Translations under genes and position numbers: made by a program
Shown: in pieces, positions 3,570 through 46,125 of the stretch
Numbering within the stretch: position 1 is the stretch's first letter
How the letters are laid out: every line of letters begins with the position of its first letter
Sequence record: OR062527
Source: Escherichia phage vB_EcoM_11B_SA_NWU
Strand: one strand, 5' to 3'
DNA length: 64,000 nucleotides
The notes under the pieces: generated by a model
Told to the model about the DNA's origin: nothing
Database searches by the model: none
The model's input: only the letters and a program-made list of their open reading frames with translations

Positions 3570-4043
3570 TTATTTGATTTGTTTAGCAGACCAAATGCGG
3601 TCTTTAATAATTTTTTGGATGTCTTCAACATACTCAAGAGAGTGAACATGTGGATTATCTTTGAAACTATAAGCACGGGCTAACTTTTGGCCTTCGGTTT
3701 TGATTACTAAAAGCTCTTTAAGGATAGCTTCATATTTAGAGATAATTCCTTTAACGATATTTTTTTCTTGTGCAGCTTTAGGATCTGCTTTAGGAGCAGG
3801 TTTACCCGAAGCCTTTGCAAAAGCAGCGCCAGTAGCAACTAAACTTTTCCAGGCCATACTAACTGCATTTCCCGTAAATCCTTCTGCTTTCATGTCGCGA
3901 GCAAATTGGAATCGTGATTCGTCAGAAGCATCTTTATAGGAATATTTACCCGCTGCAATGGCTGCTTTTGCAACAGCTTGAATTTCGGTGCTAGATGCTT
4001 CATTTAACACCGCTTCATTTAAAAATTGAGCATATGATTTCAT
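3570..4043 (-). CDS. internal-protein-like capsid-targeted protein, 157 aa (ORF-track N-terminal extension to 4208 rejected)
   Basis: N-terminus MKSYAQFLNE-AVLNE resembles T4 internal-protein CTS with LxE protease sites; Ala/Lys-rich basic body; SD AGGAAATAAG; late promoter TATAAATA upstream. Confidence 0.6.
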   Translation of the reverse strand: MKSYAQFLNEAVLNEASSTEIQAVAKAAIAAGKYSYKDASDESRFQFARDMKAEGFTGNAVSMAWKSLVATGAAFAKASGKPAPKADPKAAQEKNIVKGIISKYEAILKELLVIKTEGQKLARAYSFKDNPHVHSLEYVEDIQKIIKDRIWSAKQIK

Positions 4044-40870: not shown

Positions 40871-41875
40871 TTAGCTCACCAACTCAATCCAAGCCGGACG
40901 AAGTACATCTTGTACCATTTTAACTAATTCCTTTTTAACCAAAGAAGGATTATCCGCTTGAGTTAGAGTAATACCTTCACGAGAAGTTTCTTCCAAAATA
41001 TCTTGAACAGTTAGTCCCATCACCTTTCCAAAATCTTTAGGACCAATTTCGCCAATTTTAGAAATAACATTATTTACTCGGTTCAGTGTAACATAACAAG
41101 CTAAAATTCCCATCAGCTTATTATCAGCTTCTGATAGTTCAACTTTAGCTTTAATAGGCTTATCAGACTTTTTCTTTTCACTAAATTTGGAATTCTTACA
41201 TTTAATTGCTACACGATTTCCATTATGAAGCCAAGAAGGATAACAAGGTTTCAATACATATCCTTCAGCGGTAAACACTTCACCTTTTGCTTCGGCATTC
41301 CAAACGCATTTATTTGCATCAACTAATCCAGCATGGTCTACTGTAAAATTATAATCTTGGACGACAGAATCTAAATCATTTGGCAATTTAATAAGCTCTT
41401 CAAATTTACCGCGACCTAAAAGTGGAGCCATTTTAAATTTGAATGTATTACAGAATGATTCCATCATATAATCATCGACATAAGTCACATCACCACTTTC
41501 TGTAGTGACAATAATGTCAAATACATAAAAATCTTTATCACCATAATCAACATTCTTCTGAATGCCAGGTCCAGCGAATTCGCCAAAGACTTGATAAGAT
41601 ACAACCGCTGAAGTTTCCATAATATCTTGTACTGCTTTAATGGAATCAGCGTAATTCTTTAGAATAATTTCATACCCAAAGAAATCTTCAGCAGGAAGAA
41701 TAGGACCAGTACGTTTAGCGCAAGTTACTTTATCACGCTCAATAATCAATGAGAAATTTGTGCCGTGAATCTTTTCACGAGCTACCCATTCGCCGCCAGT
41801 CAATCCTAAGCTATAAAGTTTTTCAATAAATTTAGAGTTGTAATGATTTTCAAGACTGCTATACTTTTTAAACAT
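40871..41875 (-). CDS. rnlB: RNA ligase 2 (RnlB)
   Basis: 334 aa; nucleotidyltransferase motif I ...[10 protein letters not shown]. Confidence 0.85.
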
Positions 41876-41884
41876 AATTAATCC

Positions 41885-42163
41885 TCAAAATGTAATTTCT
41901 AACCAATCACCATCACGCTGATCACTATTAACTTTAAAGCTGAATCCTTCTTTTCTCAACCAATCACCAATTTCTTCAGTAATCAATTTATCGCGAGCAG
42001 TACAATAATAACTAAAATATGTTTTACCTTGTTCAGCTGCTTTATTAGCAAGTTCCGAAAAATCTTTAATAAAACACTCTAGTTTAAACTGTTTGCTTTT
42101 TAATGCTTTTTCGCGTAATTGATTAGCAAAAGATTCATTTTCATAAAGATCATACTGTTCCAT
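41885..42163 (-). CDS. hypothetical protein (24.2-like)
   Basis: 92 aa ORF. Confidence 0.5.
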   Translation of the reverse strand: MEQYDLYENESFANQLREKALKSKQFKLECFIKDFSELANKAAEQGKTYFSYYCTARDKLITEEIGDWLRKEGFSFKVNSDQRDGDWLEITF

Positions 42164-42365
42164 TTTTCACCTTTTTATTAATATGTCTTTTTCTATAGAC
42201 AACTTTTTCTCGAGTTTCAAATTTATTCTTAGCAGTCATAGCTCGAGCCCATAATACAGCCACTTCTTTCGCCTGTAAGTTTAATTCACGAGCAATTTCA
42301 ATGAATGACTTTCCAGACTCATGAAGAGTAAACACCACAACCTCAGTTCTCATAATCAATCTCAT
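42150..42365 (-). CDS. small helix-turn-helix protein (24.3-like)
   Basis: 71 aa; HTH-like segment FTLHESGKSFIEIARELNLQAKEVAVLWARA. Confidence 0.5.
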   Translation of the reverse strand: MRLIMRTEVVVFTLHESGKSFIEIARELNLQAKEVAVLWARAMTAKNKFETREKVVYRKRHINKKVKNGTV

Positions 42366-42454
42366 GTTATCGAGTTGGTGCCATTATATACATCGTTTTC
42401 TGACTATGTTTTGTGTGCTTTCAAAATGAAGAAAGGGGCCGAAGCCCCTTACGA

Positions 42455-43873
42455 TTATGGATAGGTATAGATGATACCAGTTTCTAAAGCAGTTTTATGA
42501 ATGATGTATCCATTACGTGATTCTTGAACATCAACTTCTGGATAGTCTTTCATCATCTTCTGAAGAGTGTAACGATGCAAGTAGTACTTACTATCTGGAT
42601 CGTCAGTTTTCCAATCTTTACCTTCTTCAGTCATTTTTTGGATTTCATCCATAACCCACCAACCGCACCAGATGTAAGCTGAAGTACGGTGTGGAAGAGG
42701 ATGAACATAAGGCAATTCACCTTCTGGTTCCGGAGCAACTTTATCAGTCACTTGAACTTGACCTGTTGTTTTAACTGTTTTGCTATCATAATCAGTTGCT
42801 GCAACGACAGCAGTAACTTCAATAGTTTGACTTCCAACAGATGAGGTATCGACAGTATATACGTTAGTTGACCCTTCTACAGGAGAAGAATCTTTCTTCC
42901 ACGAGTAAGTAATTTGTGCTTCTTCTGGAGCATCCGTAACATTAGCCGTAAATGTAGCCGAAGCATCTTGCTGAACGTTAATAGAAGGAGGAGTCAATGT
43001 AACCTGTGGATTCATTGTCTTCTTATTAACCGTTAATGATACTTCATTCGAAGTAACTTCCTTTTCATTGTAATTTTCAGCAGTTACTTGGGCTACGCAT
43101 TTAATTCTTTTTACTCCACTTGTAGTTGGAGTATAGCTAAATGTAGAGTTAGTTTCTCCACCAACTTGTGAATCATCTACATACCACTGATACGTAGCAG
43201 ATGCTCCATCAGGTTGAGAAGCTAAGGCAGCAGTAAATTGAACTGGGGTTCCAATTACTCCAGCTGAAGGACTATCGGGAGTTACTGCCAAAGTAGTTGT
43301 CTGTGTCTTTTTATTAACAGTCAGTGACACTTCATTAGAAGTAACTTCTTTTGCATCATAATCTGTCGCGGTTACTTGAGCTACACACTTAATTGTTTTA
43401 ACTCCACTTGTGTCAGGAGTGTAATTGAATGTAGCGCTAGTCGCTTCGCTCACAGGAGAACTGTCAACGTACCATTGATACGTAGCAGATGCGCCTGATG
43501 GCTGCGAAGCCAAAGCAGCGGTAAATTTAACAGCTGTTCCAATCACTCCAGCCGCAGGACTAGCAGGAGTTACGGCTAAGGTAGTCGTCTGTGTCTTATT
43601 TTTAACTGTGATAGTTGTTGTCGCTTCAGCCGTTTCCGGGCCTCCTTCAGAAAGTGTATTTGTTGCAACTACTTTAATAGTCTTTTGACCAGCAGGACCT
43701 TTTAATACATAATCAAAAGTTGCTTCAGACCCATCTTGTGGAGCATTATCTACACTCCAAGCATAAGTAATAGTTCCACCTCCAGTTTCACCACTGGGTG
43801 CAGCAGTAAACTGCTTGGTTTCATCAATAACTCCTGACGGTGTTTTAGGAGTTATATCAACTGTAAAAGCCAT
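42455..43873 (-). CDS. hoc: highly immunogenic outer capsid protein Hoc, 472 aa with extra Ig-like domain
   Basis: tandem Ig-like repeats and C-terminal capsid-binding domain; SD AAGGA. Confidence 0.85.
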   Translation of the reverse strand: MAFTVDITPKTPSGVIDETKQFTAAPSGETGGGTITYAWSVDNAPQDGSEATFDYVLKGPAGQKTIKVVATNTLSEGGPETAEATTTITVKNKTQTTTLAVTPASPAAGVIGTAVKFTAALASQPSGASATYQWYVDSSPVSEATSATFNYTPDTSGVKTIKCVAQVTATDYDAKEVTSNEVSLTVNKKTQTTTLAVTPDSPSAGVIGTPVQFTAALASQPDGASATYQWYVDDSQVGGETNSTFSYTPTTSGVKRIKCVAQVTAENYNEKEVTSNEVSLTVNKKTMNPQVTLTPPSINVQQDASATFTANVTDAPEEAQITYSWKKDSSPVEGSTNVYTVDTSSVGSQTIEVTAVVAATDYDSKTVKTTGQVQVTDKVAPEPEGELPYVHPLPHRTSAYIWCGWWVMDEIQKMTEEGKDWKTDDPDSKYYLHRYTLQKMMKDYPEVDVQESRNGYIIHKTALETGIIYTYP

Positions 43874-43882
43874 AAGTTATCC

Positions 43883-44563
43883 TTATTTTAATGTTACGAA
43901 AGAAGAATTGCGTGTTTCACGAATTAGAACTGATCCGTCGCGATTAATGTAATAAATTAAGCTAAACAGAGTTTGGTGTGCTGACGCGTGTTCAAAACTA
44001 GTTGGATGAGATTTCCAATCAGGAGTTTCAGCGATCCATTGATAAATCCACCAAGGAACCGTACAGAATCCTGGATTTTTCCCCAATAATTGAAGATTCG
44101 GGCTAAAGTTTTCCGGAAGAGTAAATACAGACGGCTTTTCAGATTCAATAATCTCAGCTACAGCTTGTTCAAACTTTTCTTCAACAAAAGGAGTGTCTTC
44201 AATCAAAACATCAGTATTTTCAGGAATTTTATCCGTTTCTACCACTTCAATTTTAATATCAGATTTAACTGGAGAATCAATCAGAAGTGCTGCTTCTGGA
44301 TTAACTTCTTCATCGTCATATTTTAATCCCTCTGCAGCATCAGCAGCATCAATTAAGTCTTTAATAGATAACCCATCAGTCTCTGGCATAGGTTCACTAG
44401 CGAGCTTCTGGAGGGCTTCTTCAATATCAACAACAATATTATCAAAAGATTTATTCTTTTTGACCTTTATACCAAACTGTTCAGCATATTCAGCTAATTT
44501 AGCTTTAGCTTCTTTATTATCATCAAGAGCCTTCAGCTCTGCAATATAATCTTTATCTATCAT
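43883..44563 (-). CDS. inh: Inh-like protein (prohead protease inhibitor)
   Basis: 226 aa, position next to hoc. Confidence 0.6.
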   Translation of the reverse strand: MIDKDYIAELKALDDNKEAKAKLAEYAEQFGIKVKKNKSFDNIVVDIEEALQKLASEPMPETDGLSIKDLIDAADAAEGLKYDDEEVNPEAALLIDSPVKSDIKIEVVETDKIPENTDVLIEDTPFVEEKFEQAVAEIIESEKPSVFTLPENFSPNLQLLGKNPGFCTVPWWIYQWIAETPDWKSHPTSFEHASAHQTLFSLIYYINRDGSVLIRETRNSSFVTLK

Positions 44564-44613: not shown

Positions 44614-46125
44614 ATGACTGACATTAAAGTACATTTTTATGATTTTAGTCACGTGAGAATTGATTGTGAAGAAAGTACATTTCATGAACTCCGTGATTTC
44701 TTTAGCTTTGAAGCTGATGGGTATCGTTTTAATCCGAAATACAAATATGGCCACTGGGATGGACGAATCCGTCTTTTAGATTATAATCGCCTTCTTCCAT
44801 TCGGCTTAGTCGGGCAAATTAAAAAGTTCTGTGATAACTTTGGCTATAAAGCCTGGATTGACCCACAAATTAACGAAAAAGAAGAATTATCAAGAAAAGA
44901 TTTTGATGAATGGCTTTCTAAATTAGAAATCTATTCAGGAAATAAAAGAATTGAACCACACTGGTATCAAAAAGATGCAGTGTTCGAAGGATTAGTTAAT
45001 CGTCGTAGAATTCTTAATCTTCCAACTTCGGCTGGTAAATCTTTAATTCAAGCTTTGCTTGCACGTTATTATTTGGAAAATTATGAAGGTAAAATTCTTA
45101 TCATTGTTCCAACAACTGCTCTGACAACTCAGATGGCTGATGACTTTGTTGACTATCGTTTATTCAGTCATGCAATGATAAAGAAAATTGGTGGCGGAGC
45201 ATCAAAAGATGATAAATATAAAAATGATGCACCAGTCGTTGTTGGTACATGGCAAACTGTAGTAAAACAACCAAAAGAATGGTTCTCACAGTTTGGAATG
45301 ATGATGAATGATGAATGCCATCTTGCTACAGGAAAAAGTATTTCATCTATCATATCAGGTTTAAATAACTGTATGTTCAAATTTGGTCTATCTGGTTCAT
45401 TACGTGACGGCAAAGCCAATATCATGCAGTATGTTGGAATGTTTGGCGAAATATTTAAGCCAGTAACGACTTCTAAGTTAATGGAAGATGGACAAGTAAC
45501 TGAGCTAAAAATTAATAGTATTTTTCTTCGTTATCCTGATGAGTTCACTACTAAATTAAAGGGAAAAACTTACCAAGAAGAAATAAAAATTATTACGGGG
45601 CTTAGTAAAAGAAATAAATGGATCGCTAAATTAGCTATTAAGCTTGCGCAAAAAGATGAAAACGCTTTTGTCATGTTTAAACATGTATCGCACGGTAAAG
45701 CTATTTTCGATTTAATTAAAAATGAATACGATAAAGTTTATTACGTATCAGGGGAAGTTGATACCGAAACACGCAATATAATGAAAACCTTAGCTGAAAA
45801 TGGTAAAGGAATAATTATAGTAGCTAGTTATGGTGTATTTTCTACTGGTATTTCAGTTAAAAATCTGCATCACGTTGTTTTAGCGCACGGTGTTAAATCA
45901 AAAATCATTGTATTACAAACAATCGGTCGTGTATTACGTAAGCATGGTTCTAAGACAATAGCAACAGTCTGGGACCTCATAGATGATTGCGGTGTTAAGC
46001 CAAAATCTGCTAATACGAAAAAGAAATATGTTCATTTGAACTATCTTTTAAAACACGGCATTGATCGTATTCAGCGCTACGCGGATGAAAAATTTAATTA
46101 CGTAATGAAAACAGTTAATTTATAA
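44614..46125 (+). CDS. uvsW: UvsW helicase
   Basis: Walker A PTSAGKS, DEcH motif NDECH; late promoter at 44577. Confidence 0.9.
   Translation: MTDIKVHFYDFSHVRIDCEESTFHELRDFFSFEADGYRFNPKYKYGHWDGRIRLLDYNRLLPFGLVGQIKKFCDNFGYKAWIDPQINEKEELSRKDFDEWLSKLEIYSGNKRIEPHWYQKDAVFEGLVNRRRILNLPTSAGKSLIQALLARYYLENYEGKILIIVPTTALTTQMADDFVDYRLFSHAMIKKIGGGASKDDKYKNDAPVVVGTWQTVVKQPKEWFSQFGMMMNDECHLATGKSISSIISGLNNCMFKFGLSGSLRDGKANIMQYVGMFGEIFKPVTTSKLMEDGQVTELKINSIFLRYPDEFTTKLKGKTYQEEIKIITGLSKRNKWIAKLAIKLAQKDENAFVMFKHVSHGKAIFDLIKNEYDKVYYVSGEVDTETRNIMKTLAENGKGIIIVASYGVFSTGISVKNLHHVVLAHGVKSKIIVLQTIGRVLRKHGSKTIATVWDLIDDCGVKPKSANTKKKYVHLNYLLKHGIDRIQRYADEKFNYVMKTVNL

Follow-up and report, generated by a model that had tools for sequence, protein, structure and literature searches.

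The 24.3 locus and its gene family

The gene considered here lies in a 64,000-nucleotide stretch of the genome of Escherichia phage vB_EcoM_11B_SA_NWU (sequence record OR062527), referred to as the window. An open reading frame (ORF) on the minus strand at 42150..42365 encodes a 71-amino acid protein, MRLIMRTEVVVFTLHESGKSFIEIARELNLQAKEVAVLWARAMTAKNKFETREKVVYRKRHINKKVKNGTV, and is the orthologue of gene 24.3 of phage T4, whose product, gp24.3, is represented by the Pfam family DUF2774 (PF11242) and by PHROG 1566. A preliminary description of this DNA had reported a 71-amino acid helix-turn-helix (HTH) protein next to hoc, citing a segment that corresponds to residues 7-42; coordinates, strand and translation were confirmed, and hoc is located directly upstream. 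The gene itself comprises the following features:

42150..42365, minus strand: ORF from the first ATG, 71 amino acids, orthologue of T4 24.3 (ORF call, DUF2774, PHROG 1566)
42150..42353, minus strand: likeliest true coding sequence, 67 amino acids from Met5 (MRTEVVV...), judged by homologue starts, the ACG of phage SQ17 and existing annotations
42213..42347, minus strand: predicted three-helix HTH (helix 1, residues 7-16; helix 2, residues 21-28; helix 3, residues 32-51), sigma-region-4/LuxR-like
42186..42212, minus strand: tail motif REKVVYRKR, residues 52-60 (alignment, column entropies, predicted local distance difference test (pLDDT) values of about 62-77)
42215..42247, minus strand: 33-bp segment, codons AMTAKNKFETR, between CTCGAG at 42242-42247 and CTCGAG at 42209-42214, absent from the T4 reference alone
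42360..42363, minus strand: Shine-Dalgarno-like GAGA, 6 nt 5' of the Met5 ATG, read directly from the sequence

The DUF2774 profile matches the window protein over all of its 63 positions (1-63/63) with 107.5 bits at a cut-off of 29.2 (E=3.9e-31), the match to PHROG 1566 has an E-value of 8.3e-33, and DUF2774 is matched by all 25 aligned representatives of the gp24.3 family. Homologues were identified by tblastn in 1079 phage records, nearly always as one copy per genome and in 404 cases with at least 99% identity; every record inspected belongs to the Straboviridae (T4-like phages). Because of the profile matches, the presence in 1079 records and the detection of both RNA and protein in T4, the ORF is far beyond chance. 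About 500 Tequatrovirus genomes match the 701-bp piece around it with an identity of 95-99% or more, and the same protein with an identical sequence is encoded in about 400 Tequatrovirus records. The T4 locus shows a mean column identity of 94% to the window in an alignment of 371 columns, in which the 33-bp gap described below is counted. No paralogue of 24.3 was found when the family hidden Markov model was searched against all six-frame ORFs of the window, and a literature search found no paper naming "DUF2774" or "gp24.3".

An exhaustive phmmer search of 1.84 billion representatives returned only 31 clusters, about two dozen of which are small phage proteins with the same architecture. Long multi-HTH proteins from this search (P0007, P0016, P0020 and P0028) were not accepted as members of the family, since it is only their HTH part that aligns; they consist of four to eight tandem transposase-type HTH units of about 45 amino acids (HTH_Tnp_1), and the N-terminus of P0007 resembles a signal peptide. 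Names given to homologues in database records were rejected as well. The homologue of Klebsiella phage Roth77 is labelled "anti-TA protein alt3" (L002:2977-3204; L numbers denote the loci that were compared), and a BLASTP comparison with T4 Alt.-3 gave no alignment at E<=100. The homologues of phages KPP95 and KpV477 are labelled "putative DNA primase-helicase subunit", and the one of KpV477 (L007:2477-2704) is a 75-amino acid DUF2774 HTH protein.

The translated product and the T4 reference sequence

The starts of the homologues align with Met5 of the window protein, the Mosigvirus SQ17 has an ACG where the window has the first ATG, and T4 and other records annotate 24.3 from the Met5 ATG. 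In the window as well as in the Jiaodavirus and Gelderlandvirus loci, the Shine-Dalgarno-like sequence GAG(G/A)T(T/G)ATT stands immediately before the second ATG; SQ17 reads GGGATTGATT at this site, or GGGATTGATTATG where the motif is taken as GAG(G/A)T(T/G)ATTATG. Taken together, the homologue starts, the ACG of SQ17 and the conserved Shine-Dalgarno-like motif make it most likely that the true 24.3 product has 67 amino acids and starts at 42353.

The T4 reference genome NC_000866 lacks 33 bp at this locus (L001, around position 3978), and the missing segment lies exactly between two XhoI sites (CTCGAG). The gp24.3 protein of the T4 reference thus comprises 56 amino acids, which is 11 internal residues fewer than the window protein, and it is because of this gap that the UniProt and RefSeq entries have 56 amino acids as well. 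Re-sequenced T4 records, by contrast, contain the segment: an 81-nt junction query matches them in two pieces that span 114 nt, as seen for HM137666, KJ477684-6, MT984581, OZ209023/57 and OL964735/45, which are all such records among the matches listed. In the T4 annotation used for HIDEN-SEQ, 24.3 is 204 nt long. The gap in NC_000866 is most simply explained by the loss of a small XhoI fragment during clone-based sequencing or by a lineage-specific deletion between the 6-bp repeats, and the 56-amino acid form in UniProt and RefSeq is probably an artefact.

Predicted fold of gp24.3

An AlphaFold2 model of gp24.3, which was built on the 25-sequence alignment, reaches a mean pLDDT of 85.6 and values of about 95 over residues 11-50. 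It consists of three helices, the last of which is 20 residues long, and thereby shows the HTH and the long recognition helix of a sigma-region-4 fold. The sigma-region-4/LuxR-type HTH that had been proposed from the spacing and residues of the sequence was therefore recovered as a predicted fold. Among the fold matches, LuxR/FixJ-type effector domains (EsrB, StyR, EvgA, DesR, RcsB, NarL and GerE) are interleaved; for GerE, NarL and RcsB, the good match covers no more than 41-46 residues. A Foldseek search against the PDB returned the same HTH families, though for a domain of this size none of them reached a significant E-value. Significant similarity to the model was confined to other DUF2774 proteins in the viral structure library, and BFVD includes longer homologues.

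Membership in the sigma-4 or LuxR families was not supported by profile searches. GerE (PF00196) is the best Pfam match other than DUF2774 and scores 18.2 bits at a cut-off of 23.5 (E=0.002), with six of the 25 family members matching at E<1. For sigma-70 region 4 (PF04545 and PF08281), Sigma70_r4_2 reaches 13.1 bits at a cut-off of 25.7 (E=0.076), Sigma70_r4 matches only one of the 25 members (E=0.023), and the TIGRFAM model of extracytoplasmic function (ECF) sigma factors, TIGR02937, scores 12.7 at a cut-off of 42.9. HTH_38 and HTH_7 are further Pfam HTH models with matches below threshold. A sequence search against solved structures yielded only generic HTH proteins, again below threshold, namely a designed HTH repeat, IstA of IS21 (E=0.034), an RpoE chain and VirB. 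To judge from the model, the likeness of gp24.3 to sigma region 4 and LuxR is one of fold and not of family membership.

Sigma factors with a region 4, such as FliA/sigma-28 (1rp3), sigma-E (2h27) and SigW (6jhe), are multi-domain proteins that also contain region 2, whereas gp24.3 is a standalone protein of 67 amino acids without regions 2 and 3. Its G-x-S-[FY]-x-E-I-A ... R-A pattern is similar to that of sigma-E; the residues that read the -35 element in sigma region 4 are not conserved in gp24.3, and the invariant basic tail described below is found in gp24.3 only and not in sigma factors. LuxR/FixJ-type proteins, including the standalone 74-amino acid GerE (1fse), form a four-helix bundle, in which a recognition helix is followed by a separate C-terminal dimerisation helix, and the gp24.3 model shows one long third helix in this place; the DNA-contacting lysines of NarL-type proteins presumably align to alanine in gp24.3. 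The preliminary description had also considered an anti-sigma-type regulator. Likeness to known anti-sigma factors was found neither in sequence nor in fold, although AsiA, MotA, Srd and Srh were not compared directly. Like gp24.3, AsiA, MotA and Srd/Srh ("sigma-similar"), which are T4 early proteins acting on the host RNA polymerase, are small, early and non-structural.

The best-conserved part of the family lies outside the HTH. Directly after the helical domain, the family has the consensus (R/K)EKVVYRKR, in which 24 of the 25 aligned sequences have V56, Y57, R58 and K59, and 23 have R60; these columns have the lowest entropies of the family. The tail has no regular secondary structure in the AlphaFold2 model, and the motif occurs once in the window. 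Within the HTH core, F21, I24, A25 and A45 are nearly invariant among the 25 representatives.

The transcription unit and its time of expression

The neighbourhood of 24.3 in the window contains the following genes and signals:

42383..42388, minus strand: perfect TATAAT hexamer resembling a -10 element, downstream of the hoc terminator and upstream of 24.3, 17 nt 5' of the first ATG, kept in T4 and SQ17
42423..42450, minus strand: intrinsic-terminator-like hairpin AAGGGGCTTCGGCCCCTT with a T-rich tail, 3' of hoc, which parts the late gene hoc from the 24.3 unit
41885..42163, minus strand: orthologue of gene 24.2, 92 amino acids, whose first 14 nt overlap the end of 24.3
40871..41875, minus strand: rnlB (RNA ligase 2), next after 24.2

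The hoc gene (42455..43873, minus strand) is located directly upstream of 24.3, with the GC-rich hairpin terminator (hairpin with T-tract, 42450-42433) in between; the same arrangement after hoc recurs in L002, L004, L006 and L009. Gene 24 lies beyond rnlB, on the strand opposite to rnlB-24.2-24.3, and the order of genes in the window equals the T4 arrangement 24 / rnlB-24.2-24.3 / hoc-inh / uvsW. Gene 24.3 is the first gene of a pre-replicative operon, 24.3-24.2-rnlB, which is flanked by the late genes hoc and 24 and insulated from hoc by the terminator. The 14-nt overlap of 24.3 and 24.2 suggests that the two genes may be translationally coupled.

In T4, 24.3, 24.2 and rnlB were assigned to the transcript class "early" and the protein class "middle" in a time-course study (Wolfram-Schauerte et al., PMC9697503, Table S2); assignment to a protein class means that gp24.3 was detected during infection. 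Given the early class of the T4 RNA, the TATAAT at 42383..42388 is a candidate promoter of 24.3. A sequence search revealed no convincing -35 element or MotA box upstream of 24.3 in the window, and no T4 late promoter TATAAATA was found there either; the only late promoters in the vicinity lie on the other strand and belong to genes 24 and uvsW. In three other genera, MotA-box-like sequences of the form TGCT(T/A)T... follow right after the hoc terminator (TTTGCTATTCA in L002:2900-2960, TTTGCTTTTC in L004:3430-3490 and TTTGCTTTA in L006:3235-3290), with a -10-like hexamer about 10-12 bp downstream, and these sites look like middle promoters of the 24.3 unit. In the window and in T4, this position is occupied by a degenerate TTTCTTCA, and the TATAAT is separate from it and lies farther downstream. 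The preliminary description had placed the ORF in a late-gene neighbourhood, which is misleading: 24.3 follows the hoc terminator, heads its own unit, is transcribed early in T4 and is preceded by MotA-box-like promoters in related genera. It is not a late gene, and its temporal class is corrected to early.

Gene 24.3 is dispensable in T4 on laboratory E. coli. A CRISPRi-ART knock-down of T4 24.3 left phage fitness unaffected (score -0.52, "Not Fit"; PMC11879866), and in HIDEN-SEQ the gene tolerated transposon insertions at 14 of 14 TA sites and was classified as "Non-essential".

Differences from T4 were also seen at neighbouring genes. The window Hoc protein (42455-43873, minus strand) has 472 amino acids compared to 376 in T4 and contains an extra copy of an Ig-like repeat, which is visible as recurring "NKKTQTTTLAVTP...SNEVSLTV" blocks. 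The homing endonuclease gene segE, which T4 carries in the interval from inh to uvsW, is missing from the window, where the end of inh at 44563 is followed by the start of uvsW at 44614.

The locus in other genera

Gene 24.3 is found at the locus between hoc/inh and gene 24 in phages Roth77, UoN_LG358_1, MHG19, KpV477, CC31 and SQ17, and its position is conserved in Jiaodavirus, Gelderlandvirus, Karamvirus, Mosigvirus and others. The order 24.3-(X)-24.2-rnlB recurs across genera, and the gene after 24.3 mostly overlaps the 24.3 stop codon. X stands for a protein of 108-118 amino acids (PHROG 7636 and relatives), which is encoded neither in T4 nor in the window and for which a Pfam search with phrog_7636 gave no match. 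Genes for X or its relatives are located between 24.3 and 24.2 at L002:3204-3530, L004:3740-4096, L006:3706-4032, L005:3729-4979 and L008:6752-7333, where they overlap the 24.3 stop codon. Morganella phage MP1 carries several tandem copies or repeats of X, and its 24.3 lies within a long early cluster. In phage CC31, the annotated 24.3 product has 193 amino acids and consists of DUF2774 fused in frame to an X-like C-terminal part. The arrangement of these genes suggests that 24.3 may be functionally linked to the small proteins encoded downstream.

Downstream of rnlB, the operons of several genera contain a SLOG/DprA-like gene (L002:4919-5467, L008:4831-5376 and L005:6616-7026); it is absent from T4 and the window. 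The product of 24.2 (41885-42163, minus strand) belongs to PHROG 2416, carries PF26862 in a precomputed database annotation and has a C-terminal ...EGF...QR-G....I-F motif that is conserved across genera. Its AlphaFold2 model was calculated from a shallow alignment, has a pLDDT of 67 with the succession helix-helix-strand-helix-strand-strand and was kept out of the fold search for its low confidence.

Possible functions of gp24.3

We favour, with a probability of about 0.45, the view that gp24.3 may act in the pre-replicative period as a small accessory protein that binds nucleic acids. In such a role, the predicted HTH would engage DNA, with most of the affinity coming from backbone or minor-groove contacts of the invariant Tyr-Arg-Lys-Arg arm. 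The early expression and the dispensability of 24.3 are in line with this view, as is the basic nature of the arm: the 13-residue tail has a net charge of +3 to +5, compared with -1 to +3 for the helical core, and V56, Y57, R58, K59 and R60 show the lowest column entropies. The protein could then modulate transcription or nucleoid and DNA transactions early in infection, and would not be concerned with the regulation of late genes. The variability of helix 3 may reflect target sequences that differ between lineages, or binding that is largely non-specific.

Several observations weigh against this view. The exposed positions 37, 41, 43 and 44 of helix 3 are among the most variable columns of the alignment and are rarely basic, which makes a conserved sequence-specific regulator less likely and speaks against a conserved readout of the -35 type. 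The residues that we take to be the base-reading ones of sigma-E- and NarL-type HTHs align to alanine, valine and leucine in gp24.3. The near-neutral HTH core is unusual for a DNA-binding HTH. The presence of glucosyl-hydroxymethylcytosine in the major groove of T4 DNA complicates the reading of bases from this side. Finally, a short peptide that is kept invariant within a disordered tail could just as well be a protein-docking motif. Since the hydrophobic core and especially the tail are nearly invariant and the surface of the recognition helix is variable, the function of the family seems to be determined by the peptide (R/K)EKVVYRKR on its small HTH scaffold, and not by the recognition helix.

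Some of these observations would be accounted for if gp24.3 were a free-standing mimic or decoy of sigma region 4, which, instead of reading DNA, fills a site meant for sigma region 4, such as the beta-flap tip of RNA polymerase, or occupies a sigma-4 binder such as host Rsd or phage AsiA, and uses the invariant VVYRKR as a docking peptide; we consider this unlikely. gp24.3 would then join the early proteins by which T4 remodels sigma-70 region 4. T4 acts on this region via AsiA and MotA and replaces it by gp33, and 24.3 is expressed early, alongside asiA and motA. The weak profile matches go to ECF sigma models and the RpoE chain, and a recognition-helix surface that is variable and non-basic on a nearly neutral HTH core would suit a protein of this kind. 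However, every sigma-4 profile score stays below its cut-off (13.1 as compared to 25.7 bits), LuxR-type DNA binders match the fold nearly as well, and the sigma-4 fold is generic among DNA binders. The tail, the best-conserved part of the protein, has no counterpart in sigma factors, and 24.3 is dispensable, whereas interference with RNA polymerase might be expected to cause a phenotype. It is even less probable that gp24.3 is an early sigma-4 mimic that docks with VVYRKR on a universally conserved target in the host, such as the RNA polymerase beta-flap or a factor that binds sigma-4, and hence a new player in the AsiA/MotA/gp33 system.

The gene neighbourhood offers another explanation, which appears rather improbable: gp24.3 could be an accessory of an RNA-repair or counter-defence module together with gp24.2 and RnlB, joined in other genera by X and the SLOG/DprA-like protein, in which it would bind RNA with its arginine-rich tail or recruit the ligase. 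The gene order that is kept across genera and the overlap of stop and start codons that joins 24.3 to the following gene are in line with such a module, as are the fusion of DUF2774 to an X-type part in the 193-amino acid protein of CC31 and the longer homologues in BFVD; the basic tail with its tyrosine, arginine and lysine residues may be likened to arginine-rich RNA-binding arms. The association with the ligase is not strict, however, as Yersinia phage MHG19 has 24.3, X and 24.2 and yet no rnlB at the locus, and in Morganella phage MP1, where the gene belongs to the long early cluster, its distance from the ligase is three genes. In vitro, T4 Rnl2 is active by itself, an HTH fold is typical of binding to double-stranded DNA, and the CC31 fusion could be the result of a frameshift or a sequencing error.

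That gp24.3 is a functionless, decaying remnant of a mobile-element HTH, derived from a homing endonuclease or a transposase, can hardly be upheld: weak transposase and resolvase matches (IS21 IstA with E=0.034, phrog_3356 "transposase" with E=6e-4, and HTH_7), the location in a region that is a hot spot of seg homing endonucleases in T4 and the non-essential nature of 24.3 speak for it, but the gene occupies the same locus in at least five genera of the Straboviridae, with intact frames, a nearly invariant motif, its own ribosome-binding site and promoter region and a protein that is detected in infected cells, and the pattern of conservation has already largely refuted it.

Significance

As a discovery, 24.3 carries little weight. 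Both the gene and its family had been catalogued before, hundreds of public phage genomes encode the identical protein, and the gene was covered by two genome-wide screens of T4, in both of which it was dispensable; gp24.3 is an ordinary protein and no new kind of element. What is added here is a confident predicted fold for DUF2774, consisting of a sigma-4/LuxR-like HTH and a nearly invariant basic tail, the assignment of the gene to the early instead of the late class, and the placement of the functional hot spot in the tail and not in the recognition helix. The observation of the XhoI gap in the T4 reference has practical value. If gp24.3 did turn out to mimic sigma region 4, this would bear on how T4 takes over the RNA polymerase of its host.
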